Under the pieces are notes generated by a model. It was not told the origin of the DNA and did not search any database. It saw only the letters and a program-made list of their open reading frames with translations. A stretch of DNA of 64,000 nt from an uncultured Gemmatimonadaceae bacterium (lineage in GTDB: Bacteria > Gemmatimonadota > Gemmatimonadetes > Gemmatimonadales > Gemmatimonadaceae): NCBI GenBank assembly GCA_963761305.1, contig CAVXGK010000002.1:1-64000 (forward strand). Direction: 5' to 3'. Of this stretch, positions 11,995 to 44,386 are shown piece by piece; the first letter of the stretch is position 1; every line of letters starts with the position of its first letter. The position numbers were made by a program, and so were the translations under genes.

Positions 11995-13581
11995 ATGACG
12001 GGACGTCGGGCGTTCTGGTTTGCCACTCTTGCCGCCGCGTGCCACTGCTTTCCTGGCCGGGGCGAGCTCGGCTCAGCGGGCGCCGAGGCTGATCGTGTTG
12101 ATCACGGTCGACCAGATGCGTGCGGACTATCTCGAGAAGTGGGCGCCGCAGTTCACGGGTGGGCTTGCGCGGCTCACGAAGGGCGGCGCTGTCTTCACTA
12201 ACGCGTTTCAGGATCATGCGAACACGGAGACGGCGCCGGGGCATTCGACGTTGTTGTCGGGGCGTGAGCCGTACGAACCGGGATCGTGTTCAATGCGGAG
12301 GGGGTGCCGGATGCGAATGCGCCGATCATCGGGGGGGGCGGGCCGGGGGCTTCTCCGTTTCGATTTCGCGGCACGGCGCTGATCGACTGGTTGAAGGCGA
12401 AGAATTCGCGATCGCGCGCGCTGTCGGTGTCGCGCAAGGATCGAGGGGCGATTCTGCCGATCGGGCGGGCGAAGGAGTCTGTTTTTTGGTATCAGAGTGA
12501 TGGGCGTTTCTCGACGAGCGCGTACTACGCGGACAAGCTCCCGGACTGGGTGACGAAGTTCAACGCCCGTGAGATTCCGCAGAGCTATGCGGGCAAGGCG
12601 TGGCTGCCGCTGCTCCCGCTGTCCGCGTACCCCGAGCCGGACACGGTGCCGATCGAGGACAACGGCCGCGAGCCGGCGTTCCCGCACGTGCTGTCGAACG
12701 ACTGGGACGCGGCGGCGCGCGATTTCATCGCGTTTCCGTGGATGGACGATCTGACGGTTCAGTTCGCGCTCGACGGCGTGAACGCGATGAACCTGGGGCT
12801 CGGCCAGGCGCCCGATCTGCTCTCCGTGTCGCTCTCGACCACCGACGCCGTCGGCCACCGGTTCGGCATCGCGTCGCGAGAGATGCACGACCAGATCCTG
12901 CGCGTCGACCGGGCGATCGGGGTGCTTATCGATTCACTATATAAGATGCGTGATTCGTCGACGATCGTCTTCGCGCTCACGGCGGACCACGGCGCGACGC
13001 TGCCGCCCGAGCTGGCGCAAGACACCGGCGACGGGCCGAAGCCGATGCGGGTCGATCTCTACCCGCTCGTCGCGGACTTTCAGGCGACCGTCGCCAAGAA
13101 GATGAACACCGACTCGGCGATCGCCTACGAGGACGCGGTGCTGCTGCTCAACCGGTCGCGCCTGTCGCACAACCACGTCAACGCCGATTCACTCGCCCGC
13201 GCGTTCGCCGACGCGGCGAAACACCAACCCGGCGTGTTCCGCGCCGATCTGTTCAAGGACATTCTCTCGGCTGATACAACCAACGATCCGATCGCGCGGC
13301 GGTGGCGACACGCGATCCCGCCGGAGTGGCCGGCGGCCGTGGTCATCACGCTCAATCACGGGAGCGTGTGGGGCAGCACTGGCGGCACGCCCGGCGTGCA
13401 CGGGTCACCGTGGGACGAGGACTGCCATGTGCCGATCGTGTTCTACGGGCCGTGGGTAGCGCCGGGGAGATACGACGAGTTCGTGCGAACGGTGGATATC
13501 GGGGCGACGTTCGCGCAGATCGCCGGGGTTCGACCGACAGAAGATATTGATGGACATGTGCTCGGGCGGGCGATCAAGTGA
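11995..13581 (+). CDS. Alkaline phosphatase superfamily protein (PafA/PhoV-like), frameshifts near 12040 and 12280
   Basis: 'ITVDQMRADYL', 'TETAPGHSTL' (Thr nucleophile), 'SRKDRGAILP', 'SLSTTDAVGHRFG', 'LTADHG', 'HGSPWDED.HVP'. Confidence 0.92.
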
Positions 13582-13590
13582 CGGCGACAC

Positions 13591-14022
13591 TGCTCCCACG
13601 GTAGATCGCGAGCACTGGGGAGGACGGCGCTGCGCTCGAAGTCGGACGTCAGATGTCAGACGTCAGACATCAGTTTCGGCGTTGTGGGGCTACCATCGCG
13701 GCTGGGTGAGGGGTAGCTCCTCAGCAGCCAGATACGAGGAATCCTCTGAGGGTCGACGATCCGGTCGCGGCGGTGAAGCGGGATGCAGCTTCGCTGCAAG
13801 CGTGCGGATGCACGATCGCAGACGCTGTGCCTCAGGTCGGTGACATGGGTCGCGGATTGGCTTTCGTGGTGACCGAGTCGGAATTACGGACAACGGACAA
13901 ATGCTCCCACGCGAGATCGGGAGCATTGGATAGGACGGCCCGCGCTCGAAGTCGGACGTCAGACGTCAGACGTCAGACGTCAGTGTCGGCGTTGGACGGC
14001 TGCGATCGGGGATGATTGAGGA
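13591..14022. repeat. Two ~120-bp direct repeats, each a small hairpin plus (GACGTCA)n array
   Basis: 13591..13712 ~ 13902..14022: TGCTCCCACG..AGATCG.GAGCA...AGGACGGC...CGCTCGAAGTCGGACGTCAGA.GTCAGACGTCAGAC.TCAGT.TCGGCGTTG. Confidence 0.85.
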
Positions 14023-31633: not shown

Positions 31634-33409
31634 TTGGCCTCGCTCGTGACCCAACCCTCGGAAGAATCGCAGGACCTAATCGCTTGCCCGTCGTGTGACA
31701 GCCCCGCCGACCCGCGCGCCGTGGTGTGCGCGGTCTGCGGCGCCGTGCTCGCGAGCGGCATCGAGAGCGATCAGGCCGCGGACCTGCTCAAGCGGCTCCG
31801 CGACGCCCTGCAGGGTCGTTACGTGCTCGGCACCGCCATCGGTCTCGGCCGCGGCGGCATCACCATTCGCGCACGCCGTCAAGCGGGGGCAAACCGTGAC
31901 GTCGCGATCAAGATCGCCTGGGACGATCCGGTCGCGCGCCGAGACCTGGTGCGCGAAACGGACCTCGCGTCGCAGGTCGTTCATCCCAACGTCCTGCCGA
32001 TGGCGCGGCTCGACGTCGCGCCACCGCTCGTCGCCGTCGAGATGCCCCTCGTGGAGGGTGGAACACTCGGCGATCTGATCGACAGCGGCAAACCCGTGCC
32101 ATACCAGCGCGTGATCGAGATCGTGCGCGGCATCGGCGCCGCGCTCGACGAGGCCCACGACCACGGCGTCGTGCACGGCGCGCTGCGCCCGGAAAACGTC
32201 CACCTCGACCGGGACGGCAACGCGCTCATCTCCGGGTTCATGCTCGGGCAGTTCCCGAGTGGAGACCGCGACGCGCCGCTTCCCAACTCGATCGGCTCGC
32301 CGGCGTACACCGCGTTCGAGCAGCGGCACAACCTTCACACGATCGACGGGCGCGCCGACCAGTTCTCGCTTGCGGTGATCGCGTACGAGCTGCTCTGCGG
32401 CCGTCGCACGTGGCGCATTCCCGCCGACGGCGTGCTCGAGATCGACGCCATCGAGATCATGCCGCACCGCGCCATTGCGCCGGCCGTTCCGCTCAGCGCA
32501 GGCGCGGCGATCAAGCGCGCGACCTGGAAGGATCCGGACTACCGGTACGACAGCATCAACGACTTCATCGCCGGGCTCACCGGAACCGTGCTTCAAGGGA
32601 CCCCCGCCGAGCAACTCGCGAAGGTGGACCACGGCGGCGACATCAAGCGTCGCTCGCCGGTATGGATCCTCGCGCCCCTTGGCATTTTGGTGTTCCTCGC
32701 CGGTGGGTTTCGGCCCGACATTCGAAAGACGGCGACGCGCTGGTGGCATCTTGCATTCACCGACAACACCATGTTCGTGCCGGGCGGCAACTACTCCGAC
32801 GGGCCGGCGATCGATCCGAGCTCGCCGCCGACCATGCCCAGTCCGGCGACCACAAGGCGCCCTGACACGACGCAGTCGTCGCGGGGGAACACGCGGATCG
32901 GCGTCGAGACGCCGCTTGGGCCAGCCGCGCCGCTGGGCCCCGATCGCCAGTTCAACCCTTATCCCAACAGCCCGAACTCCGGGGGCGGAAACGAGGCTCC
33001 CTCGAATACGCGCCGAGTGGACGACGGGTCAAAAGATGCGGGCACGCGCACGCCCGATTCCAAGACGTCCAAACCCGGAGCGGAGCACGTCTCGCTCGAG
33101 GCGGGCGCGATCGGATCGGCCCCAGGTGCCAGTTCGGGGCGCGGCGGCGCGGCGCTGGCCGGCGACACGGTATCGCCCAACGTCGCCGGCTTCGTCGCCG
33201 TGTCGGTCGAGAGTGGGCTCGCGACCGTTTTCGTCGACGGCCTGTTGCGCGGGAGAGCGCCGCTTGTCCTGAAGGCGGCGGCCGGGAAGCACGTGGTGAC
33301 CGTGAAAGGCACCGGCAAGTACGCGCCTTCGTCTATCTCGGTCACGGTCACGCCGCACGACACGATTCGCGCTGTGTTTGCAACGAGCGCCGGTCCGCCG
33401 AAAGAGTGA
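31634..33409 (+). CDS. Zinc-ribbon + Hanks-type Ser/Thr kinase-like domain (probable pseudokinase) + TM + PEGA domain
   Basis: 'CPSC...CAVC', 'DVAIK', 'HPNVL', 'HGALRPENV', 'GSPAYTAFEQ', 'ADQFSLAVIAYELLCG'; TM; 'ATVFVDG...GRAPL...GKHVVTV'. Confidence 0.85.
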   Translation: MASLVTQPSEESQDLIACPSCDSPADPRAVVCAVCGAVLASGIESDQAADLLKRLRDALQGRYVLGTAIGLGRGGITIRARRQAGANRDVAIKIAWDDPVARRDLVRETDLASQVVHPNVLPMARLDVAPPLVAVEMPLVEGGTLGDLIDSGKPVPYQRVIEIVRGIGAALDEAHDHGVVHGALRPENVHLDRDGNALISGFMLGQFPSGDRDAPLPNSIGSPAYTAFEQRHNLHTIDGRADQFSLAVIAYELLCGRRTWRIPADGVLEIDAIEIMPHRAIAPAVPLSAGAAIKRATWKDPDYRYDSINDFIAGLTGTVLQGTPAEQLAKVDHGGDIKRRSPVWILAPLGILVFLAGGFRPDIRKTATRWWHLAFTDNTMFVPGGNYSDGPAIDPSSPPTMPSPATTRRPDTTQSSRGNTRIGVETPLGPAAPLGPDRQFNPYPNSPNSGGGNEAPSNTRRVDDGSKDAGTRTPDSKTSKPGAEHVSLEAGAIGSAPGASSGRGGAALAGDTVSPNVAGFVAVSVESGLATVFVDGLLRGRAPLVLKAAAGKHVVTVKGTGKYAPSSISVTVTPHDTIRAVFATSAGPPKE

Positions 33410-34926
33410 TGCGCACCCGAGCGCCGCTTCTCGCGGCTCTCGCCATCGCGGCGGGCCTTCCGTTCGCCGCAGTGGCCCAGCGGATCTCTCCGCTGCCCAA
33501 GCCCTGCCGTGTGCCGGGCGCCGAGGCCGCGAACGTCCTTCCGCAGCGGATCCGCTCATCGCTGGCCGTGTCGGTTTTCTCATCTGACTCCACCGACCCG
33601 GCGGGGGAGCTGGCGGGCGGAATCGCCGACGCCATCGCCAATCGGCTCGGCACGTCGGTCCCCCGAATCCTCGTGATAGGTCGCCGCGCCCAGCACCGGC
33701 TCGTCGTTACCGACTCGATTTCCGCGCGCGCGATGGCCGAAAGCCTCGGCACGACGTACGTGCTCGCGGGCCGCGTGACCGAGGGACTTCGCGGGCGCAC
33801 CGTGGCGTTCACCTTGTACAACGGCGCGACGGGGCGCGCGCTGATGTATCGCACGCTGCCGCACGATTCCGCCCACGTGATGCTCGTGGAGCAGAACGTC
33901 TCGCGGCAGGTGGCGACGCAGATTCTGGGGAAACTCAACCCGGGCGAACAACGAGCCCTCGACCGGGTGCCACGGGTCAACGGGAACGCTTACGACGCGT
34001 ACGTGCGTGGACAGGGCGCGCGCGACGTGTGGGCGTTTGGCCGGGCGGCTGGATACTTCCGCGACGCGGCGCGGCTCGACAGGTCATTCAGCGCCGCCTT
34101 CGCCGATCTGGCGCTCGCCGACGTCGAGATACTGCTGCGCGGACTCAGCTCGACCGCGGCGACGGACGTCGCTCTCGAGGCGCGCAACGCGGCGAGCCAC
34201 GCCGTCGCGCTCGACTCGATGTCGAGCCTGTCGTGGCGCGCCGAAGGGGCGGCGCGCCTGGTCGACGGGAAATCCAGCGCGCTGTGGCGGCGGGCCTACG
34301 AGCGCGCGATCGTGCTCGACCCTCGCGACCCGGCGGTACTCGAGGAGTACGGACTCGCCCTCGTCCGCACGGGTGATCGCGAAGCCGGCCGCCCGCTGCT
34401 GGAGCGCGCGCTCGTTTACGAACCGGGGCGAGCGCAGCCGATGGCGGCGCTTGCCAGCCTCGCGATCTCCGATCACCGTGATGGCAGCGCGTGCACCCTG
34501 CTCAACCAGGCAATCGTGGGCGACGTGCTCTTCGCGCCCGCGTGGGCGCAACGGGCGGTGGTTCGCGCGCAGCATGGGGATCTGCGCTTCGCGTGGGCCG
34601 ACGCCGAGACCGCGACGCAGCTCGGAGAAAGCCACCTCGGCGAGAGCGCTGGCGCGATGGTCGATTTACTGGCGCGCGATACGTCGCGTGCTCGCGACCG
34701 ACTTTATATCGAGTGGAGCCAGGTGAAGGCCGCCGGCGCGGTGGGAGTGACCGATGGCACGGCAATCGCGCGTGCGATGATCGCCGCGGGGCAATCTACC
34801 CGCGCGCTTGACGTTCTCGAGCTGGCGAGGCCGCGGGGACTGTGGTTCGTTACCGCGTTGCGCGATCCAGCCTTCGACACCCTTCGCGGCGATAAGCGTT
34901 TTCTCGCTCTGACGACGAAGCAATGA
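33406..34926 (+). CDS. Secreted TolB_N-like + TPR repeat protein
   Basis: Signal peptide; 'LAGGIADAIANRL', 'LGTTYVLAGRV', 'AYDAYVRG', 'AARLDRSFSAAFADLA', 'DPAFDTLRGDKRF'. Confidence 0.75.
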   Translation: MMRTRAPLLAALAIAAGLPFAAVAQRISPLPKPCRVPGAEAANVLPQRIRSSLAVSVFSSDSTDPAGELAGGIADAIANRLGTSVPRILVIGRRAQHRLVVTDSISARAMAESLGTTYVLAGRVTEGLRGRTVAFTLYNGATGRALMYRTLPHDSAHVMLVEQNVSRQVATQILGKLNPGEQRALDRVPRVNGNAYDAYVRGQGARDVWAFGRAAGYFRDAARLDRSFSAAFADLALADVEILLRGLSSTAATDVALEARNAASHAVALDSMSSLSWRAEGAARLVDGKSSALWRRAYERAIVLDPRDPAVLEEYGLALVRTGDREAGRPLLERALVYEPGRAQPMAALASLAISDHRDGSACTLLNQAIVGDVLFAPAWAQRAVVRAQHGDLRFAWADAETATQLGESHLGESAGAMVDLLARDTSRARDRLYIEWSQVKAAGAVGVTDGTAIARAMIAAGQSTRALDVLELARPRGLWFVTALRDPAFDTLRGDKRFLALTTKQ

Positions 34927-36056
34927 CCGGTCTGCGGATCGATCGGGAGAGGGTTCGGCTCTACGGAATCGGACTCGCCCTGATCGGTCTCACGCAGATG
35001 CGGTTCGTGGCGAGCGTCGGGCACTACTGGGATTGGGTCGACTTCTACATCGCCGGCGCGATGGCCGGGACGCGCGCGCTGCTCGACCCCGCGGCTCATG
35101 CCGCCTGGGGAGCGGCCCATGGCCTCCCCGTGACATCGTTCGCGTACATGCCGGGCTTTGCCTGGCTCCTCGTGCCGACGTCTCACCTGACGATCGCGTT
35201 GGGTTTTGCGGTCAATGCCGTACTGATGTCGCTCTGCGCGCTTGTCGCGTCGAGGCTTGCGTCGCGCGTCTACGGTCTCGACGCCGGAGACGCGCTCTAC
35301 ATGACCATCGGTTGGGCCCCGGTGACGGCAGCAATCGTGACCGGACAAAACAGCCCTCTTGGTCTACTCCTTTCGCTCGTGGCGATCGACGGCCTGCAGC
35401 GGGGCAGCGCTCTCCGAACGGGCCTGGGTGTTGGGGCGCTGTGCTACAAACCAACATACGCGCTGCCGTTCGCCATTCTGCTTCTCATATATCGAAAGTG
35501 GAAGGCGATCGGGGTCGTGGCGGCGTGCGGCGTGGTATGGTACGTACTCAGCGCGAGCGCGGCAGGCGGGGACTGGCTGTGGCCAAGGCCGTATCTCCAG
35601 TCGCTGGCCGGCTACGTCGGGCCGGATTTCGCCTACAACCGCTTCAAGTCGGTGAGCGTTCCGGGGCTGCTGATGCTGGCCGGCGTCTCAGCCAGCGTGG
35701 CCTTTGGGATCGGGATGGTTGGTCTCGTCTCGGCGCTGGGGTGGCTCAGGGCGCGGAAGGTCGAGCTGCTTTCGGCCGCAAGTCTTGCGGGAGTCATTGG
35801 CGTGGCGACGAGCGGGCACGCGTGGCCGTACGATGCGGCGCTCGCGTTGCCGGCGCTGTGGTGGGTCGCGGCGAAGGTCGACGAGCCGGCGAGGACTCGG
35901 GCGATCGTGGTTGCGTACGTGGTTGCGCCGTTGTGGATGGCGGCGCATACACTCCGATTCGACCCGCTGGCGATTGTCGTTGTTGGAGGGGCGGGGGCGC
36001 TTGTGGTGCGAACGGCGAAACTAACAAAGAGCGAAACAAACAAAGGGCGAAGCTAA
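34923..36056 (+). CDS. Glycosyltransferase family 87 (DUF2029)-like membrane protein
   Basis: 'DWVDFYIAG', 'FAYMPGFAWL', 'TGQNSPL', 'YKPTYA', 'HAWPYD'; last ~15 codons derive from the repeat array. Confidence 0.82.
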   Translation: MTGLRIDRERVRLYGIGLALIGLTQMRFVASVGHYWDWVDFYIAGAMAGTRALLDPAAHAAWGAAHGLPVTSFAYMPGFAWLLVPTSHLTIALGFAVNAVLMSLCALVASRLASRVYGLDAGDALYMTIGWAPVTAAIVTGQNSPLGLLLSLVAIDGLQRGSALRTGLGVGALCYKPTYALPFAILLLIYRKWKAIGVVAACGVVWYVLSASAAGGDWLWPRPYLQSLAGYVGPDFAYNRFKSVSVPGLLMLAGVSASVAFGIGMVGLVSALGWLRARKVELLSAASLAGVIGVATSGHAWPYDAALALPALWWVAAKVDEPARTRAIVVAYVVAPLWMAAHTLRFDPLAIVVVGGAGALVVRTAKLTKSETNKGRS

Positions 36057-36172
36057 CAAAGAGCGAAGCTAACAAAGGGCGAAGCTAACAAAGGGCGAAG
36101 CTAACAAAGGGCGAAGCTAACAAAGGGCGAAGGTGACGAACGGCGAAGGTGACGAACGGCGAAAAAGGCGAG
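36009..36172 (+). repeat. 16-bp tandem array A
   Basis: 7 units of CTAACAAAG(G/A)GCGAA(G/A) type (36021..36132) then 2 GTGACGAACGGCGAA(G/A) (36133..36164). Confidence 0.95.
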
Positions 36173-36297
36173 ATGACGTGGCCCCCAAGACTGGCCCGGA
36201 AATGATGTCAGTCCAGTGATTGACGCTCGCGCGTTGGCGCAGCGGAAGCTGTCCGATCTCGAGGGGCAGCGGGAGGTGGTGCGACACATCTGTGTCC

Positions 36298-36720
36298 CTA
36301 GGCTGGCACCGGAGTGCCCTTGGCCCACGCCCACGCGGCTATGCGCCAACTGTCTTCATGCTTCCGAAGTGCAAGCGTAAAGGTCGCGTCCGACTGAGTA
36401 ATCTGCTTGCCCAATAGCTTGAACGTCATGCTCGCGGGAACCACCACATACGCACTGTCGCCGGTAACGTTGGCATGCAACGGGGTGCCGATCGTGACCA
36501 AGTAGTCGGTCGCGCCTTCGTGTTCGGCTGCCGCCAATACGTCCCTGTACCAATCCTCACACGCCGTGGGACCGTGCCACACATGTGGCGCCAGACCATC
36601 GAGGATAGATGCGGGAACAGCGAAACACGCCGCCATTGCCCGAGCGTCACCTTTGTTGAACGCGTCGATGTACTGGCGCACTACAGTTACGGGATCGCTT
36701 GTTGGTGCAGCCCGTGCCAT
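36298..36720 (-). CDS. NTF2/SnoaL-like domain protein
   Basis: 'VVRQYIDAFNKGDARAMAACF', 'VTGDSAYVVVP', 'FTLALRK...SWRIAAWAW'; RBS GGAGA. Confidence 0.85.
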   Translation of the reverse strand: MARAAPTSDPVTVVRQYIDAFNKGDARAMAACFAVPASILDGLAPHVWHGPTACEDWYRDVLAAAEHEGATDYLVTIGTPLHANVTGDSAYVVVPASMTFKLLGKQITQSDATFTLALRKHEDSWRIAAWAWAKGTPVPA

Positions 36721-36924
36721 GTGAGTTTCTCCCAAGGCTTCGCCAAAGCTCGGTCCATCTCAGGACGCGCATTCAAGTTGTGCGCGTCGCGCGCGCAGAC
36801 ACCGAGACACGGTACGAAGACGACAGTCAGTCGGTGATTAGCGTCGTGAAGGTGCAACGTTGAGGAGTTCTTTGACAAACTCGTCCGGGGTCCGATCGCC
36901 GAGGCCGCTGTTAGCGCGCGACGA

Positions 36925-37055
36925 CTAACAAAGGGCGAAACTAACAAAGGGCGAAACTAACAAAGGGCGAAGCTAACAAAGGGCGAAGCTAACAAAGGGC
37001 GAAGCTAACAAAGGGCGAAGGTGACGAACGGCGAAACGGCGAAAACGGCGAGGGG
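36925..37055 (+). repeat. 16-bp tandem array B, abutting the 3' end of the four-helix-bundle gene
   Basis: 6 x CTAACAAAGGGCGAA(A/G) (36925..37020), GTGACGAACGGCGAAA, then CGGCGAAAACGGCGAGGGG. Confidence 0.95.
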
Positions 37056-37060
37056 TTCGA

Positions 37061-37396
37061 CTAGTACTTCAAGCCGTTGATCATCCGAACGATCGTGATG
37101 CCGCGGTTTGAGAGGCGGTGGTAGTCGGCACGGGTAAGTTCGCCCAGACGATACGACTTCCGAATCCATCCGATTGTCTCCTCGCACTCACAGCGGGCGA
37201 TTCGGTAGACGCGCATCCGATCGGCGCCCGGGCCACGGCCGTAGCCCTCGATCAGGTTTGAACTGATCGATCCGGCGGAGCGAATAACTTGCCCTGAATA
37301 CGTCTTTCGGCCGGCGCGCCGACCGAAGCGGCGATTTACGTCCACGGCGTAATCCTCGGCTGCATCGATCACGCGCAGCGTCCGTTTCGGTGGCAT
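37061..37396 (-). CDS. Four-helix-bundle protein (23S rRNA intervening-sequence protein/IVP-like family)
   Basis: 111 aa; 'LRVIDAA', 'GQVIRSAGSISSNLIEGYGR', 'YRIARCECEET', 'IVRMINGL' fit the family pattern Q..R.A.SI..NI.EG..R...IA.GS..E. Confidence 0.85.
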   Translation of the reverse strand: MPPKRTLRVIDAAEDYAVDVNRRFGRRAGRKTYSGQVIRSAGSISSNLIEGYGRGPGADRMRVYRIARCECEETIGWIRKSYRLGELTRADYHRLSNRGITIVRMINGLKY

Positions 37397-37539
37397 GGGC
37401 GACACCGTAACGCCGCTCTCGGGGCCAACCACCATCCCGCCGTTGCCGCCGGAACCAATCCGTTGCCGAATTCCTTCTGCCGAAGGAGAGGTCACGGCCG
37501 GGCTGAGAAAGGTCTGAATCGCCCCTCTGGCCGTTCTCG

Positions 37540-37685
37540 CCCCTCTCGAAGTTCGTTACCTTCGCTCTTCGTTAGCCTCGCCGTTTGGCGTCTTCGCCGT
37601 TCGTTCGTTTCGCTCTTCGTTAGCTTCGCCGTTTGGCATCCTCGCCGTTTGGCATCTTCGCCCTTCGTTCCCTTCGCCGTTCGCC
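37540..37685 (-). repeat. 16-bp tandem array C, inverted relative to A/B, more degenerate
   Basis: Reverse complement gives ~8 units, e.g. CTAACGAAGAGCGAAG, ATGCCAAACGGCGAAG, ending ...CGAGAGGGG towards the four-helix gene. Confidence 0.9.
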
Positions 37686-37688
37686 TAC

Positions 37689-39344
37689 ATGGTCAAGCCG
37701 ATCATTCTCGCCGTCGACGATGATCCCGAAGTGCTGAACGCGGTCGATCGCGATCTTCGCGCGCACTTTCGCGCGGACTATCGGGTCATCAAGGTCGCGT
37801 CCGGCCGCCTGGCGATGGAGACGACGACGCAGCTCAAGCAGCGGGGGTCGCCGATCGCGCTCTTTCTCGTCGACGAGCGCATGCCCGAGATGAGCGGGAC
37901 GCAGTTTCTGGCCGAGGCGATCAAGCTGTATCCGGACGCGCGCAAGGTGTTGCTGACGGCGTACGCCGATACCGAGACGGCGATCCTCGCAATTAATAAG
38001 ATTGGGCTTGATCATTATTTACTGAAACCGTGGGAACCGCCGGCCGAGCGGTTGTATCCGATCCTCGACGACTTGTTGACGGACTGGAAGGCGAGGACGC
38101 GGCCGCTGTTCGACGGGTTGCGCGTCGCCGGCACGGGGCTCTCGCCGTCGAGCTATGCACTCAAGGATTTTCTCGCCGGCAACCAGGTGCCGTACCAGTG
38201 GGTCGACCTCGATGCGGATCCCGCGGCGCGCGCGCTGGTCGAGGCGATGCCGGGCGGATTGAAGCGGCTTCCGGTCGTCTTCTTTCCCGACGGAGCGTCG
38301 ATGGTCCAGCCGACGACGCTCCAGCTGGCCGAGAAGCTCGGCATGCAGACGCACGCGAAGTCGAAGCAGTACGACCTCGTCGTCGTCGGCGGCGGGCCGG
38401 CGGGATTGGCCGCGGCCGTGTACGGCGCGTCGGAGGGGCTGCGCACGATTCTGGTCGAGCGCTATGCGACCGGCGGACAGGCGGGCACCAGCTCGCAGAT
38501 CGAGAACTACCTCGGGTTCCCGAGCGGCGTGAGCGGCGCGGATCTCGCGCGCCGAGCCACGACACAGGCGAAGCGATTCGGGGCCGAGGTGCTCACGGCG
38601 CAGGACGTCGGGTCGATCGAGCGGAACGATCCGTATCGCGTGGTGAAGCTGTCCGACGGTTCTGTGTTGCAGAGCAAGACGGTTGTCATCGCGTCGGGGA
38701 TGGAAGTGCGGCGGCTCGACGTGCCGGGGATCGAGGCGCTCGTCGGCTGCGGCGTTTTCTACGGCGCCGCGCTCACCGAAGCGGCGACGTACCGCGACCG
38801 CGACGTGTTCGTCATCGGCGGCGCGAACTCGGCGGGGCAGGGCGCGATGTTTTTCTCGCGCTACGCGCGGCGCGTGACGATGCTCGTGCGCGGCGAATCG
38901 CTGACCGCCAGCATGTCGCAGTATCTCATCGACCGCATCGCGGACACCAAGAACGTCGAAGTGCTAACGCGAGCAGCGGTGTGCGGGGTGCGGGGAACTG
39001 AGAGGCTCGAGGCGATCACGATCTCCGATCTCAAGACCGGTGCGACGCGCGAGATGCCGGCCGACGCGCTGTTCATCTTCATCGGCACGTCGCCGCGCAC
39101 CGAGGTGGTCGCGGGACTGGTGCAGCGCGACGCGCAGGGATTCATCCTCACGGGACGCGACCTGATGGTCGACGGCCAGCGTCCGCCGGGGTGGACGCGC
39201 GACCCGTATCTCTTCGAGACGAGCGTGCCGGGCATCTTCGCCGCCGGCGACGCGCGGCGCGGCTCGGGAAAACGCGTCGCCGCGGCCGTGGGCGAGGGAT
39301 CGGCGACGGTGAGCATGGTCCACGAATACCTGGAGACTGTGTGA
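37689..39344 (+). CDS. Response-regulator receiver fused to thioredoxin-reductase-like FAD oxidoreductase
   Basis: 'ILAVDDD', 'DERMPEMSG', 'LLTAYAD', 'KPW'; 'GGGPAGLAAA', 'GGQAGTSSQIENYLGFP', 'IGGANSAGQ', 'FAAGD...KRVAAAVGEG'. Confidence 0.93.
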   Translation: MVKPIILAVDDDPEVLNAVDRDLRAHFRADYRVIKVASGRLAMETTTQLKQRGSPIALFLVDERMPEMSGTQFLAEAIKLYPDARKVLLTAYADTETAILAINKIGLDHYLLKPWEPPAERLYPILDDLLTDWKARTRPLFDGLRVAGTGLSPSSYALKDFLAGNQVPYQWVDLDADPAARALVEAMPGGLKRLPVVFFPDGASMVQPTTLQLAEKLGMQTHAKSKQYDLVVVGGGPAGLAAAVYGASEGLRTILVERYATGGQAGTSSQIENYLGFPSGVSGADLARRATTQAKRFGAEVLTAQDVGSIERNDPYRVVKLSDGSVLQSKTVVIASGMEVRRLDVPGIEALVGCGVFYGAALTEAATYRDRDVFVIGGANSAGQGAMFFSRYARRVTMLVRGESLTASMSQYLIDRIADTKNVEVLTRAAVCGVRGTERLEAITISDLKTGATREMPADALFIFIGTSPRTEVVAGLVQRDAQGFILTGRDLMVDGQRPPGWTRDPYLFETSVPGIFAAGDARRGSGKRVAAAVGEGSATVSMVHEYLETV

Positions 39345-40774
39345 TGGGCGACACGCCTGCGGAAATCGTCGAGCGGCTCGTCGCGCACCGCACACTGGGG
39401 GGCGCGCCGCGCGCGGAGCTCGAGTGGCTGGCCACGCACGGCACCATGCGGCGCTACGGAACGGGGGACATCCTCGTCCCGCCCGGTGCGACGTCCACCG
39501 AGATGGTGATCATCTTCGTGGGCGACGGGTCGATCAGCGTCGAACGAGCGGGGGAAAAAAAGAAGTTCCTCGAGTGGCACGCCGGCGACGTCACCGGCCT
39601 GCTTCCATATTCTCGAATGAAGCGGCCGCCGGGGCTGACGACGACGGAGTCGTCAATCGAGGGGCTCGTCATTCACCGGGATCTGTTCCCCGAGCTGACG
39701 CGCGAATGTCCGTGGGTCACGGAGACGCTCGTGCACATCATGCTCGATCGCGCGCGGCAGTTTTCGGCCAACGACTGGCAGATCGACAAGCTCGCGTCGC
39801 TGGGACGCCTCTCGGCGGGACTGGCGCACGAGCTCAACAACCCGGCGTCGGCGATCGCGCGCAGCGCGCGAACGCTGGTCGAGAACCTGGCGCAGTCGCA
39901 AGCGGCGGCGCGAGAACTGGGGGCGGCCAACCTCCGCGATCGCGACATCGCGCTGATCGACGCCATGCGCGACGGCCAGGCGTTTCCGCGAGCGACCGGC
40001 ATCTTCTCGGCGATCGAGCGCGCCGATCACGAAGAGGAAGTGGTCGAATGGCTCGAAGCCAAGGGCGCCGATCCGGCGACGGCGCAGAGCCTGAGCGAGA
40101 ATGGCGTTCCCGTGGCGGCGCTCGACGATCTGGCGAGCGCGATCCCGGAAGAGTCGCTGGATGCCGCGCTCCGGTCGGTGGCGTCGGGCATCACGACGCG
40201 CTTGCTCGCCGAGGACATCGAGCGCGCCGCGACGCGGATTCACGAGCTGGTCGGCGCGATCAAGCGCTTCACCTACATGGATCGCGCGACGGTGCGAGAA
40301 CCGGCCAACATCGCGCAGGGGATCTCGGACACGATCGCCGTGCTGGCGTCGAAGGCGAAGTCAAAATCGGCCTCGATCAAGCTCGACATCCCCGCCGATC
40401 TGCCGAAGGTCGGCGCGTACGGAGGCGAGTTGAATCAGGTATGGTCGAACCTGATCGAGAACGCGCTCGATGCGCTGGGGCAGGGCGGCGAGGTGTCGGT
40501 CACGGCGCGGGCGGAGGGGGACACGGTCATGGTGCGGATCGTCGACAATGGGTCGGGGATTCCGGCGGATGTCCTGCCTAGCATCTTCGATCCGTTCTTT
40601 ACTACGAAGCCGATGGGGCAGGGGACGGGGCTGGGGCTGGACATCAGTCGGCGGATCGTGTTATCGCATGAAGGGACGATTGAGGTCGAGTCTAAGGCGG
40701 GGAGGACGGAGTTTAGGATTTCATTACCAACGGCGAAGATAACAAAGGGCGAAGATGACAAAGGGCGAGGATAA
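39344..40774 (+). CDS. Cyclic-nucleotide-binding-domain histidine kinase
   Basis: N-terminal cNMP-like fold; 'AGLAHELNNP', 'LNQVWSNLIENALDA', 'DNGSGI', 'FDPFFTTK', 'GTGLGL'; C-terminus derives from array D. Confidence 0.93.
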   Translation: MGDTPAEIVERLVAHRTLGGAPRAELEWLATHGTMRRYGTGDILVPPGATSTEMVIIFVGDGSISVERAGEKKKFLEWHAGDVTGLLPYSRMKRPPGLTTTESSIEGLVIHRDLFPELTRECPWVTETLVHIMLDRARQFSANDWQIDKLASLGRLSAGLAHELNNPASAIARSARTLVENLAQSQAAARELGAANLRDRDIALIDAMRDGQAFPRATGIFSAIERADHEEEVVEWLEAKGADPATAQSLSENGVPVAALDDLASAIPEESLDAALRSVASGITTRLLAEDIERAATRIHELVGAIKRFTYMDRATVREPANIAQGISDTIAVLASKAKSKSASIKLDIPADLPKVGAYGGELNQVWSNLIENALDALGQGGEVSVTARAEGDTVMVRIVDNGSGIPADVLPSIFDPFFTTKPMGQGTGLGLDISRRIVLSHEGTIEVESKAGRTEFRISLPTAKITKGEDDKGRG

Positions 40775-40937
40775 CAAAGGGCGAAGATAACAAAGGGCGA
40801 AGATAACAAAGAGCGAGGATAACAAAGGGCGAAGATAACAAAGGGCGAGGATAACAAAGAGCGAGGATAACAGAGGGCGAAACTGCCAAAGGGCGAAGCT
40901 AACAAAGAGCGAAGGTGACGAACGGCGAGAACGGCGT
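40727..40937 (+). repeat. 16-bp tandem array D
   Basis: 12 units 40739..40930, mostly ATAACAAAG(G/A)GCGA(A/G)G, ending CTAACAAAGAGCGAAG-GTGACGAACGGCGAGA-ACGGCG. Confidence 0.95.
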
Positions 40938-40960
40938 AAGGCGCCCCGTCGCCTCTGGAT

Positions 40961-40996
40961 TCGCAGTCCTCGCAGTCCTCGCAGTCCTCGCAGTCT
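40961..40996. repeat. (TCGCAGTCC)x4 nonamer between arrays D and E
   Basis: Three exact copies plus TCGCAGTCT. Confidence 0.9.
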
Positions 40997-40997
40997 T

Positions 40998-41075
40998 GGC
41001 TGTTCTCGGAGTTTGTCACCTTCGCTGTTCGTTAGTTTCGGAGTTTGTCACTTTCGGGGTTTGTTACCTTCGCTT
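40998..41075 (-). repeat. 16-bp tandem array E, inverted partner of D
   Basis: Reverse complement: GTAACAAACCCCGAAA GTGACAAACTCCGAAA CTAACGAACAGCGAAG GTGACAAACTCCGAGA ACAGCC. Confidence 0.85.
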
Positions 41076-41087
41076 TTAGTCAGGGCT

Positions 41088-42617
41088 ATGTCGACAATGT
41101 CTCGTCAGTCCCCCGCAGACCTGTCTCCCGATGAGTTCCGGGCCGCCGGCAAGGCGTTGGTCGACCGGCTCGCCGATTTTCTGGCCACGATTCGAGATCA
41201 GCCCGTCGCGCCGAATACGACTCCTGCGTCGGTGCGCGATCGAATCGCCGGGCTCGATCCGGTTCCGCTGAAGGGCTCCCCCGCTGGCGAGGTTCTCGCG
41301 CATGCGTCGGACGTGATGCTGTCCGGGTCGACGCTGAACGGGCATCCGCGGTTCTTTGGGTACATCACGTCTTCGGCGTCGCCGATCGGGGCGCTGGCCG
41401 ATCTGCTGGCGGCGGCCGTGAATCCGAATTGTGGCGCGTGGGCGCTGTCTCCGATCGCCACCGAGATCGAGAAGCAAACGATTCGCTGGGTCGCGGAGCT
41501 GATCGGTTATCCGACGGACTGCGGTGGCATTCTGGTGAGCGGCGGCAACGTGGCGAATCTCGCGTGCTTCGTGGCCGCCACGCGTGCGCAGTCGTCGTCC
41601 GATCTGCGCGCGCACGGCGTGTCGGGCTCGGAACGGCTGCTCGTGTACGCGTCGGCCGAGGTGCACACGTGGCTGGAGAAGGCCCTCGACATCTGCGGGC
41701 TGGGTCTCGACTCGCTGCGCTCGATTCCGGTCGACCACACGCGCGCGATGAACACCGAGGCGTTGCGCGAGCAGATCGAGCGCGATCGTCGCGACGGGCT
41801 GCGGCCGGCGATCGTCGTCGGCACGGCGGGGTCGGTAAGCACGGGCGCGATCGATCCGCTGCGCGAGATCGCCGCGATCGCCAAAGAGAACGATCTATGG
41901 TTCCACGTCGACGGCGCGTACGGCGCGCCGGCGGCGATTCTTCGCGATGCGCCGATCGAGTTGCGCGCCATGGCGCTGGCCGATTCGCTGGCCGTGGATC
42001 CGCACAAATGGCTGTACGCTCCGCTCGAGGCGGGGTGTGCGCTCGTGAGACGCCCCGCGGCGCTGCACGACGCGTTCGCTTTCCATCCCCCGTACTACAC
42101 GTTCGAGGGCGACGTCCAGGATCCTCCGACCAACTTCCATGAGTGGGGACCGCAGAACTCGCGCGGGTTCCGGGCGCTCAAGGTCTGGACGACCATCCAG
42201 CAGGTGGGGCGGGAAGGGTATGAGCGGATGATCGGCGACGACATCACGCTGTCGATGCTCATGCACCGGCTGGCCGACGAGCACGAGGAGCTCGAGCCGC
42301 TCACGCAATCGCTCAGTATCAGCACGTTTCGTTACGTCCCGGCGGATCTGGCCGGCCGGTCCGACGCCGCCGAGTACCTCAATGAACTGAACAGCACGCT
42401 GCTGGCGCGGATTCAGGCGGATGGGACGGCCTATCTGTCCAACGCGGTCATCGAGGGGGTCTTTGCGTTGCGTGCGTGCATCGTGAACTTTCGGACGACA
42501 GAAGAGGACGTGCGGCGGACGCTCGCGACGGTGGTGACACTCGGCCGCGCGGCGGACGACGCGTTGCGTCCGGCTGGCCTGCGGGCTCCCATCCGCTCGG
42601 CCGGCGTCGCCCGATAG
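41088..42617 (+). CDS. Group II PLP-dependent (aromatic L-amino-acid-type) decarboxylase
   Basis: 'HPRFFGYI', 'SGGNVAN', 'TAGSVSTGAIDPL', 'FHVDGAYG', 'DPHKWLY' (PLP lysine), 'SRGFRALKVW'. Confidence 0.93.
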   Translation: MSTMSRQSPADLSPDEFRAAGKALVDRLADFLATIRDQPVAPNTTPASVRDRIAGLDPVPLKGSPAGEVLAHASDVMLSGSTLNGHPRFFGYITSSASPIGALADLLAAAVNPNCGAWALSPIATEIEKQTIRWVAELIGYPTDCGGILVSGGNVANLACFVAATRAQSSSDLRAHGVSGSERLLVYASAEVHTWLEKALDICGLGLDSLRSIPVDHTRAMNTEALREQIERDRRDGLRPAIVVGTAGSVSTGAIDPLREIAAIAKENDLWFHVDGAYGAPAAILRDAPIELRAMALADSLAVDPHKWLYAPLEAGCALVRRPAALHDAFAFHPPYYTFEGDVQDPPTNFHEWGPQNSRGFRALKVWTTIQQVGREGYERMIGDDITLSMLMHRLADEHEELEPLTQSLSISTFRYVPADLAGRSDAAEYLNELNSTLLARIQADGTAYLSNAVIEGVFALRACIVNFRTTEEDVRRTLATVVTLGRAADDALRPAGLRAPIRSAGVAR

Positions 42618-42622
42618 CGGGC

Positions 42623-42650
42623 GCGCTCCAATCCGAACACATTGGAGCGC
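42623..42650 (+). terminator. Perfect 10-bp inverted repeat just after the decarboxylase stop (terminator-like or operator)
   Basis: GCGCTCCAAT-N8-ATTGGAGCGC, followed by TT only. Confidence 0.45.
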
Positions 42651-42792
42651 TTGCACGTAATACATTCGTGAGTCGGCAGTAAGGCGCTTCGCGGCTTCGC
42701 TGTCGACCACCACGAATATCACGAATCGCAGGCTCGAGCGGCCCCCACCCGCCGGCTCGGCATAACCGTTTGTTTTGCCTCTAAACGCTCTA

Positions 42793-44386
42793 ATGATCGG
42801 ACCGCGCCCATTCGGCCGCCGCGCACCGTCGTGGTACATCATCCTCGCGCTCGCCGGGATTTCGGCGACCGCTTGTAGCAAGAAGCAGGGACCGCAGCAG
42901 CGACCAGTCGCCATGGTCGGCGTGATTCCAGCGCGCCGCGCGACTGTTCCATACATCATCGAATCGAACGGCATCGTCACGCCGCTCCAGACGGTGACGG
43001 TGCTGACTCAGGTCGACGGCATCATCCAGTCGGTGGACTTCCGGGAAGGCCAGGAAGTTCGCGTCGGACAGCCGCTCTTCCATATCGATCCGCGGCAATA
43101 CCAGAACGCATACGACCAGGCGCTCGCCATGCTCGCGCGCGACAGCGCGACGTGGGAGAACGCCAAGGCCAACTCGGATCGCTACAAGCAACTGCTCGAC
43201 GCGCGCGTCATCACGTTCCTCGAGACCGAGGCGCAGGTGACCGGCGAAGCGAGCGCGCGCGCCACGTTGCAGGGCGACCACGCGAACATCGCGCAGGCGA
43301 AGCTCAATCTCGACAACACGATCATTCGCGCGCCGATCGCCGGCCGAACGGGCAACCTGCTGGTGAAGCTGGGGAACCTTGTGCGATCGGGCGGCACGAC
43401 GCCGCTCGTGGTGATCAACCAGGTGCGGCCGATCCTCGTGCGATTCGCGATTCCGTCGGCGCAGCTGCCGCTGGTCGTGCAGTACGGCGCGAACGGTGGT
43501 CTGCCCGTCGAGGCGCTGCCGGGCGGTGTGGCACCGCCGACACCTTCGATCGACTCGCTCGCTGCCGCCTCCATGAACCCGGTGGGCGATCCGCCAGGCC
43601 AAGACGGGGGGGGCGGCTCAGCCAGCGCGGGCGGCAGCGGCGGCAGCGGCGGGGGACGCCATAGAGGTGGCGGCGCGGGCGGGGGTGCCTCGGGCGGCCC
43701 GCCGGGTAGCGCGGGCGGTCCTCCGAGCGCGGGAACGGATGGAGCGGGTCCCGGCGCAGTGCCGCAGGGGCATGGGTCCGGGTCGCCGATGCAAGGCGGA
43801 GCCGGAGCCGGGGGCGGGGGCGGGGCCTACTCCGGATCGCAGGGCGTTGGTGCGCTCTCGGCGGCCGGACCAACCACGCCCGTTGGCGAGCGCATGACCG
43901 GCAAACTCTCGTTCATCGACAACGCGATCGATACGTCGACGCAGACCGTGCAGCTCAAGGCGACGTTCGACAACGCAAACGGGCATCTCTGGGCGGGACA
44001 GTTCACGGCGACGTCGCTGCATCTGTTCGACGAAGACAACGCGCTCGTCGTGCCGTCGCAAGCGGTGGTGAGCGGCCAGCGCGGCATGTACGTCTACGTC
44101 GTCGATCAGAGCGACACGGCGCGCCAGCGCGGCGGTGATCGTCGAGCGCACCCAGGACGGCCTCTCGATCATCTCGAATGGAATTCACGAAGGCGATCGC
44201 GTGGTGACCGACGGCCAAATGCGACTCACGCCGGACGCGCCGGTTCGCGTACGCGGACCGAACGACGTTGCCGGCGGCGCGACTGGCAGCCGTCGCGGGC
44301 GTGGCGGCAGAGGTGGTGGTCGCCGCGGCGGTGGCGGCGCATCCGGCGGAGCCGCCGACAGCACGGCAGCGAAACGCGGCGGGTGA
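42793..44386 (+). CDS. RND efflux periplasmic adaptor (MdtA-like) lipoprotein with Gly-rich insertion; frameshift near 44128
   Basis: 'ISATAC' lipobox; 'QVDGIIQSVDFREGQEV..GQPLFHIDPR', 'IRAPIAGRTG', 'GKLSFIDNAID..TQTVQLKATFDN', 'GDRVVTDGQ' in 44135..44386. Confidence 0.9.

Follow-up and report, generated by a model that had tools for sequence, protein, structure and literature searches.

C-poor codon choice at gene 3' ends ahead of purine-rich tandem arrays in a Gemmatimonadaceae genome

Arrays and genes at the locus

The window analysed here covers the opening 64 kb of contig C2 from an uncultured Gemmatimonadaceae bacterium, whose genome (5.2 Mb in two contigs, 66% GC) is called G000 in the comparisons with its relatives. 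Between 35.9 and 41.1 kb, Tandem Repeats Finder (TRF) identifies five arrays of a 16-nt unit, here A to E, set among protein-coding genes. Our subject is the choice of codons in the genes that run up to such arrays: over the last 60–80 codons before purine-rich arrays it is C-poor and G-rich, and this choice is real and tied to the array. The arrays and the genes around them are as follows.

34923..36056, + strand: GT87-family membrane glycosyltransferase gene (Pfam), whose open reading frame (ORF) extends 43 nt into array A
36014..36163, + strand: array A, purine-rich arm, 16 nt x 9.4 (TRF)
36924..37037, + strand: array B, second purine-rich arm (TRF)
37061..37495, - strand: PF05635 gene (23S rRNA intervening-sequence protein; Pfam, E 2.6e-15), in the loop between arms B and C
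37519..37683, + strand: array C, pyrimidine-rich arm, purine fraction 0.26 (TRF)
37689..39344, + strand: receiver/thioredoxin-reductase fusion gene, between array C and the kinase
39344..40774, + strand: histidine kinase gene (ORF and translation; HATPase_c at residues 363–464), with its last 14 codons read from array D
40732..40914, + strand: array D, purine-rich arm, 16-nt unit x 11.4, purine fraction 0.80 (TRF)
41006..41072, + strand: array E, pyrimidine-rich arm pairing with D (TRF; RNA fold)
41097..42617, + strand: pyridoxal phosphate-dependent decarboxylase gene (Pfam), with a C-poor, T-rich zone at the third codon positions of 41160–41520

Arrays A, B and D are 75–80% purine on the + strand, and C and E are their pyrimidine-rich complements. 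Arrays D and E together are predicted to form one long hairpin, with an RNA minimum free energy (MFE) for 40725–41085 of -128.3 kcal/mol (z -4.77) that none of 100 shuffles reached. The PF05635 gene in the B–C loop is one of 10 matches to this family in the genome, and at eight of nine loci the gene is flanked on both sides by inverted tandem arrays whose periods are 7, 8, 13, 16 or 32 nt; most array pairs in the genome have no gene in the loop. Each array forms one arm of a cassette that has the shape of an rRNA intervening sequence (IVS).

Over the whole genome, TRF reported 49 period-16 arrays, of which the 41 that are skewed and intergenic were kept; of the eight that were dropped, four lie beyond C2 3.36 Mb and lack skew, two have a coding fraction of 50% or more, and the purine fraction of the other two is 0.4–0.6. 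The usual order of the 16-nt arrays is purine arm, spacer, pyrimidine arm. Where an arm adjoins a gene 3' end, it is rich in purines on the coding strand of the gene in 20 of 23 cases, and an arm beside a gene 5' end is pyrimidine-rich in 14 of 15.

C-poor patches in the window

Genes were called with our own ORF and codon-score caller (87% coding), and only those of at least 150 codons were used. Against genome means at third codon positions of C 0.448, G 0.395, T 0.087 and A 0.070, each 40-codon window was scored as the observed minus the expected C at third positions (C3; likewise G3 and T3), given its amino acids and the genome codon usage, with the 66,151 such windows of all called genes serving as the reference distribution. 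Besides the 3' end of the GT87 gene and the decarboxylase zone, the window holds these C3-poor patches.

40430..40731, + strand: C3-poor, G3- and T3-rich 3' end of the kinase gene, strongest at 40544–40753
37902..38111, + strand: C3-poor patch in the receiver/thioredoxin-reductase fusion gene, z -3.3 to -4.3, 230–430 nt from array C
12289..12558, + strand: C3-poor patch in a phosphodiesterase-family gene (Pfam), z -3.5 to -4.7, about 400–700 nt from an array
13399..13578, + strand: C3-poor 3' end of the phosphodiesterase-family gene, z -3.0 to -4.1, 60 nt before the heptamer array 13641–13673 (TRF)

In the kinase gene, C3 in 25-codon windows is 0.28–0.60 over most of the gene and falls to 0.04–0.20 from 40586 to the stop codon, where G3 reaches 0.48–0.68 and T3 0.12–0.24; taken over the last 60 codons, the fall in C3 is from about 0.40 to 0.04–0.16. 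After correction for amino acids, 40544–40753 scores z -4.1 to -5.06 (percentile 0.0001–0.0009), and the GC skew of the kinase end in 150-nt windows is 0.29–0.31. The GT87 3' end is C3-poor over 35706–36035 (z -2.6 to -4.3), with 35886–36005 at z -4.28 and percentile 0.0006. Within the decarboxylase zone z runs from -2.1 to -4.0, the latter at 41310–41459, and 13459–13578 at the end of the phosphodiesterase-family gene has z -4.1.

An earlier, sequence-only reading of this DNA had noted that in the kinase gene, towards array D, C-ending codons give way to T- and G-ending ones with the protein motifs intact, had picked out by eye the same drift at five other stretches near repeats, had placed the depletion on the + strand, and had proposed that the repeats may raise a local C-to-T and C-to-G mutation rate. 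The depletion itself is borne out at every named stretch, since all six fall in the lowest 0.01–0.6% of the reference windows after amino-acid correction. The kinase motifs are indeed intact, as the HATPase_c match attests, and the shift is synonymous: codon positions 1 and 2 have normal composition, so the reading frames are right and the change is silent. The description of the replacement codons needs correction, as the gain is mainly in G, with T rising only at two-fold C/T sites. The patches 37902–38111 and 12289–12558 touch no array, and the drift placed at 41090–41300 belongs to the weaker decarboxylase zone, with its maximum slightly 3' of that range. The strand assignment did not hold: it is the coding strand that is depleted, minus-strand genes being depleted on the minus strand, and the impression of a + strand effect came from the orientation of the genes in the window.

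The codon shift follows the arrays through the genome

To examine the link at the scale of the genome, gene 3' ends within 120 nt of a 16-nt array were taken as array-adjacent and compared with 3168 control ends. At the 18 3' ends that abut a purine arm, with the genes of the window excluded, the observed/expected (O/E) ratio of C3 in successive blocks of 20 codons from the 3' end is 0.63/0.77/0.87/0.91/1.04, against 0.90/0.95/0.96/0.98/0.98 in controls, and that of G3 is 1.18/1.17/1.17/1.05/0.94. Over the last 60 codons this amounts to a C3 deficit of -0.098 per codon (p 1.9e-4) and a G3 excess of +0.062 (p 5.7e-4); the accompanying T3 excess is not significant (p 0.13). Without any correction, C3 in the last 60 codons near arrays is 0.333 compared with 0.419 in the controls (p 6e-5), and 0.352 when the two window genes are removed (p 5.6e-4). 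Scores of z -3 or below within the last 60 codons occur at six of 23 ends near arrays and at 110 of the 3168 control ends (Fisher p 1.2e-4), and the difference in mean z holds without the window's genes (p 3.3e-4). The effect is confined to the third codon position, where C is 0.295 near arrays and 0.423 in controls, while G1, C1 and position 2 equal the controls.

The shift has a direction. At 5' ends that lie behind a pyrimidine arm (n = 15) C3 shows no effect (mean z -0.08, controls 0.03), and where two genes converge on a pair of arrays the genes are depleted on their own coding strands at seven of eight ends. The non-coding outer flank of the purine arms (n = 670) is similarly poor in C and rich in G, with A.213, C.243, G.375 and T.169, compared with the intergenic reference of A.182, C.318, G.318 and T.182. 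These data bear on points that the sequence-only reading had put up for checking: the C3 deficit at 3' ends decays with distance from the arrays over 60–80 codons, the control ends lack a matching depletion, and the depleted strand tracks the gene and the array arm, with an effect on both sides of convergent pairs. The GC skew of the genome per 50 kb stays within about +/-0.04, tracks gene orientation and reveals no origin or terminus.

Other repeat families are also abundant in this genome, with 140 octamer arrays (of the GGTGGACN type) and 143 period-21 arrays; the octamer arrays are accompanied by only a short-range shift (up to 20 codons) of G3 over C3 at adjoining 3' ends. There are 134 extreme C3-poor patches genome-wide, spanning 120–330 nt. 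About 20 of them cluster at C1 1,744,000–1,790,000 in many short genes, a region that is probably an island of foreign origin whose codon usage differs.

Orthologues with and without arrays

Six relatives share the synteny of this region, and arrays surround the PF05635 gene in all of them; their unit sequences differ but the arms still match. The GT87 3' end is depleted in the four array-bearing relatives that could be scored (z -5.3 to -6.5), so its skew persists across species despite the turnover of array units. The intergenic regions L021–L026 illustrate this turnover, as at the same junction the unit sequence varies between species while both arms within each species remain complementary, which implies that the units turn over fast and that the arms co-evolve.

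The kinase/decarboxylase junction offers a comparison of array states. Arrays are present in G000, G015, G019 and G005, a single-unit relic only in G017, G022 and G024, and a plain 150-nt spacer in L028. Of 77 related kinase loci, 70 passed the filters and were scored. In the last 60 kinase codons, the observed/expected C3 counts are 9/27.8, 13/29.2, 17/26.6, 13/27.3 and 10/31.3 at loci with arrays and 20/27.9, 16/27.1, 18/28.7, 29/28.8 and 22/28.8 at array-free loci, with an O/E of 0.97 in L028. The Gly-rich motif of the kinase is written with GGC, CTC and ATC codons in L028 and with GGG, CTG and ATT in G000. Among about 60 array-free kinase homologues there is no dip at the 3' end, and in those of at most 60% identity the value for the last 60 codons is near that of the rest of the same gene. 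On the other side of the junction, the 5' zone of the decarboxylase gene is C3-poor and T3-rich in the lineages with an array or a relic and normal in L028.

In array-less relatives (loci L002–L004) the same junction carries one purine-type unit just behind the kinase stop codon, and two of them also carry one complementary unit; these remnants look like a collapsed array pair.

The patch in the receiver gene, which every array-bearing relative has, gives a further contrast, with z -4.3, -3.6 and -2.8 at three array-bearing loci, and it is absent from 17 array-free orthologues in other genera with GC3 of at least 0.84 (z -1.4 to +2.4), although here the comparison is confounded with phylogeny because one clade is set against the rest.

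Substitution pattern and codon classes

A raised C-to-T or C-to-G rate by deamination, fork stalling or nicking, as the sequence-only reading had suggested, should leave its mark on the classes of codon affected and on the rate at which C is lost. Four-fold sites near purine arms have C 0.24–0.34, G 0.54–0.58 and T 0.04–0.09; T at these sites is not raised (0.09/0.05/0.05, controls 0.08/0.07/0.07), and C+T together is down from 0.48 to about 0.35. Among Leu codons the change from CTN to TTR is not raised, TTR accounting for 13 of 90 compared with 2343 of 17316 (14%) in controls (p 0.76), whereas the AGR codons of Arg, which require a C-to-A change, are three-fold up (13 of 77 vs 6%, p 4e-4). 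The GGC codon of Gly is down to 38% from 54% (p 0.003).

Third-position changes in the kinase were polarised by parsimony among four roughly equidistant lineages. In the last 80 codons of G000 and G015 taken together C is not lost faster than elsewhere (18/46, rest of the gene 86/250, p 0.61), but C is hardly ever gained (2/70 vs 59/319 in the rest, p 4e-4). Array-free L028 has the reverse pattern in the same codons, with C gains at 17/41 and losses at 2/20. Both G000 and G015 continued to lose C after they diverged, with loss:gain ratios of 11:1 and 7:1. Synonymous codon identity between G000 and the others is flat along the kinase (0.60 overall; 0.66/0.58/0.44 in the last three windows), dipping modestly over the final 40 codons in G000 alone, which amounts to neither conservation nor clear acceleration. 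As the rate of C loss is not raised and the gains are missing, the substitution counts favour a filter against C over a mutational halo, which predicts raised C loss; with a single gene and parsimony at high divergence behind them, they are suggestive, not decisive. The link between arrays and codon shift that had been proposed is supported, but a raised mutation rate as its cause is not: four-fold T, Leu TTR and the C-loss rate are all unraised, C gains near the kinase array are nearly absent and synonymous divergence is not clearly increased. The mutational reading is weakened accordingly.

Further features of the locus

Two smaller features lie within the array region.

36298..36735, - strand: SnoaL-like gene in an insertion between arrays A and B (Pfam; synteny and intergenic sequences)
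40961..40995, + strand: 9-nt repeat of 3.9 copies in the D–E loop (TRF)

The insert at 36166–36920 occurs in G000 only; alignments of the six relatives did not show it, and in these the PF05635 gene comes directly after the first array. A search of 33000–44000 against Rfam gave no match, and a promoter and terminator scan returned nothing beyond shuffled expectation. Among contigs of four soil DNA runs, the matching pieces were short and 90–99% alike.

The codons of the Gly-rich ATP-lid motif of the kinase (40612–40640) include four GGGG runs with two bases between neighbours, which makes them a canonical G-quadruplex motif of the coding strand. As a general feature of these gene ends the G-quadruplex was rejected, since the motif is found at one of 20 array-adjacent ends, that of the kinase, and in 0.4% of controls; G-runs are commoner at the array-adjacent ends (5.05 vs 3.08 per 240 nt), as composition predicts.

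The gene at 37689–39344 joins a response-regulator receiver, a weak glutaredoxin-like stretch and a thioredoxin-reductase-type flavoprotein, and it is kept together with the adjoining kinase in 47 of the 151 Gemmatimonadaceae-family genomes searched. The phosphodiesterase-family gene has its apparent start near 11996 and seems to be interrupted in a short G run (12270–12285) by a 1-nt frameshift, either an assembly error or the mark of a pseudogene; the called ORF starts behind the frameshift at 12286, and the patch 12289–12558 sits about 100 codons inside the likely full gene. Two copies of a ~60-nt element, at 13626–13690 and 13936–14000, each hold a heptamer array in the same orientation, and this heptamer family also flanks two PF05635 genes (C2 78536 and C1 31056).

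Discussion

As an explanation of the C-poor gene ends we tentatively favour selection for a C-poor run-up in the transcript before the first hairpin arm, because the non-coding outer flank is also C-poor and G-rich and because the effect occurs only ahead of the arm that is transcribed first. The agent, we infer, is selection acting on RNA folding or on the access of Rho. Purine arm, loop and pyrimidine arm are predicted to fold into a hairpin of 100–200 nt of the rRNA IVS design, some loops holding a PF05635 gene. The purine arm is made first and would stay unpaired until its partner is transcribed 60–1700 nt later; in this interval C-rich mRNA from upstream could base-pair with that G-rich arm, or could load Rho. 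Selection would then act against C wherever the codon leaves a choice, with G taking its place at four-codon sites, T at sites that allow only C or T and AGR for Arg, and the resulting run-up would keep the arm free, or Rho off, until transcription reaches the partner arm. Past the second arm the hairpin would have closed by then, and no such pressure would be expected. The specific proposal that the first-transcribed purine arm of an IVS-type hairpin keeps C out of ~200 nt upstream, the last 60–80 codons, is a doubtful one; if true, such a silent-site constraint from a mobile or structural RNA element on host genes would be of a new kind.

The predicted duplex between flank and arm is weaker than that of flanks recoded with genome usage at 16 of 20 loci (-48.9 vs -52.1 kcal/mol, p 0.004), in modest support of a run-up that keeps the arm free. 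A number of observations weigh against the run-up explanation. The drop in pairing energy is small (about 6%) and is fully accounted for by composition, since permuting the same codons among equal amino acids gives -49.1 vs -48.9 (p 0.65), and there is no position-specific avoidance of arm-complementary words beyond composition. U is up at two-fold sites, and a U there is no bar to pairing with the A and G of the arm. The patches that touch no array, at 37902–38111 and 12289–12558, and much of 41160–41520, which lies behind the second arm, are left unexplained, and most of the 134 extreme patches of the genome are far from any array. A G3 excess in the last 20 codons is found beside arrays of any family, whatever their orientation. 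A general rule that a flank mimics the skew of its array was tried with intergenic arrays of all families (182 gene ends) and rejected: Spearman coefficients at 3' ends were 0.02–0.11, 5' ends gave no robust trend, and concordant flank skew was limited to arrays of at least 80 nt. All substitution counts are from a single gene, with parsimony applied to four lineages whose synonymous divergence is ~40%, so that multiple hits blur the counts, and a persistent mutation bias that blocks changes to C is possible.

A separate candidate, extension of the stem by the outer flanks, had been raised by an 801-nt MFE fold with 49 flank-to-flank pairs; it was dropped when, over 12 array pairs, cognate flanks gave no stronger duplexes than non-cognate flanks did (-78.9 vs -79.2, p 0.58; cofold p 0.45).

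Mutation with a strand bias centred on the arrays, a wider form of the idea with which the sequence-only reading began, would account for several of the same facts and is, in our judgement, unlikely. Stable RNA:DNA hybrids of the purine-rich transcript, or polymerases stalled at the hairpin, would leave the coding strand of the flank exposed or repaired with errors, so that it loses C; purine-rich RNA on pyrimidine-rich DNA is unusually stable, and C-to-T change rises on the non-transcribed strand. In its favour, the effect is array-associated and decays with distance, coding and non-coding outer flanks are alike C-poor, the depleted strand is the non-template strand, and the G000 lineage has losses of six C>T and five C>G with one gain. 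What speaks against it is the signature described above: T at four-fold sites is not raised and C+T is down, Leu CTN-to-TTR shows no change against a three-fold increase in Arg CGN-to-AGR, the per-site loss of C is not raised and the skew arises from missing gains, synonymous identity along the kinase is flat apart from the modest dip in G000, and replication skew is negligible genome-wide. The abundance of extreme patches at 3' ends with no array within 1 kb, the C1 cluster at 1.744–1.789 Mb, the 230–700-nt gap between some patches of this locus and their arrays, and the G3-over-C3 excess of the last 20 codons whichever way the neighbouring array faces would all fit an array-independent process that makes short islands of skew, like GRINS or recombination junctions, with arrays merely sharing gene ends or recombination-prone junctions; GRINS, by their published description (PMC8256042), show intense third-position skews of unknown cause in bacteria. 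We regard this as decidedly improbable, given that the patches are unique sequence and not duplicated, that enrichment at ends beside 16-nt-unit arrays is strong and that the patches are missing in array-less orthologues at three junctions.

It is still less credible that the order of cause is reversed and that cassettes or arrays settle, or expand, beside gene ends already G-rich and C-poor. The inferred ancestral kinase end was already C-poor (20–23 C among about 58 sites vs 45% in the rest), and lineages with a single-unit relic are still moderately depleted; on the other hand, G000 and G015 kept losing C after diverging, a 16-nt seed needs no graded flank of 200 nt, and the ~60 array-free kinase homologues have no intrinsic 3' dip. 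An artefact, whether an assembly error, a wrong frame or third positions set by a hidden antisense gene, has next to no probability and is close to refuted. Long antisense ORFs do overlap each patch and the metagenome assembly has at least one likely 1-nt frameshift, but in-frame protein alignments with relatives reach the gene ends, the composition of positions 1 and 2 is normal, independently assembled relatives share the pattern and none of four antisense ORFs over patches has a Pfam family.

Strand asymmetry through cytosine deamination on single-stranded DNA is familiar as the GC/TA skew of replication and as transcription-associated C-to-T change on the non-transcribed strand. The gene ends described here resemble it in their preference for G over C and, to some extent, T over A on one strand, here the non-template strand, at mostly synonymous sites. 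They differ in being local (~200 nt) and anchored at the first hairpin arm, with no chromosome-scale or gene-wide gradient, and in that C gives way to G rather than T at four-fold sites with neither Leu TTR nor the C-loss rate raised. Selection at synonymous sites against mRNA structure is also well established, for example as weak folding around start codons. Our favoured explanation shares with it a local, graded codon choice set by what the RNA must not pair with, but the examples known so far involve the 5' end of the same gene and the initiation of translation, whereas here a neighbouring non-coding hairpin would act on the 3' end of the gene upstream.

GRINS are described as regions of >500 bp with a copy of >80% identity elsewhere in the cluster or genome, linked to gene conversion, with the cause of the skew unknown (PMC8256042). 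The present patches are like them, as so described, in combining an intense third-position skew in functional coding sequence with a retained protein. They are unlike them in size (120–330 nt, with a graded zone of ~180–240 nt), in being unique (blastn of four patches against the genome returned only self hits and paralogues of at most 72%) and in lying at gene ends beside arrays. GC skew is 0.23–0.32 in five patches, and TA skew, mostly lacking, is 0.33 at 35860–36010 and 0.01–0.04 in the kinase end, where the GRINS definition asks for mean absolute GC and TA skews both >0.15 and correlated.

For the cassette itself, the nearest parallel is the ORF-bearing 23S rRNA IVS of Coxiella burnetii, which encodes S23p and whose stem is cut by RNase III (PMC4990558). 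The likeness, a PF05635 gene between complementary inverted arms, is one of array context and not of skew. The cassette here lies between protein genes, those of the GT87 protein and the response-regulator fusion, and not within a 23S rRNA gene; tandem arrays form its arms, with units of 7–32 nt across such cassettes, and most arm pairs have no ORF. The abstract of the IVS report (PMC4990558) mentions no codon effect on neighbours, and no description of codon skew beside such arrays was found in the open-access literature searched.

Silent sites are a common neutral yardstick, and here as many as 80 codons of ordinary genes show a bias, strong, graded and conserved, that is tied to a repeat element next to them. 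If selection on co-transcriptional folding or Rho access is the true cause, hairpin cassettes would shape host coding sequence far past their own borders; if a mutational process is, the arrays would mark sites where one DNA strand is treated differently. With ~20 junctions in this genome and a presence that varies among relatives, the arrays are a natural, replicated system in which to part mutation from selection at silent sites.

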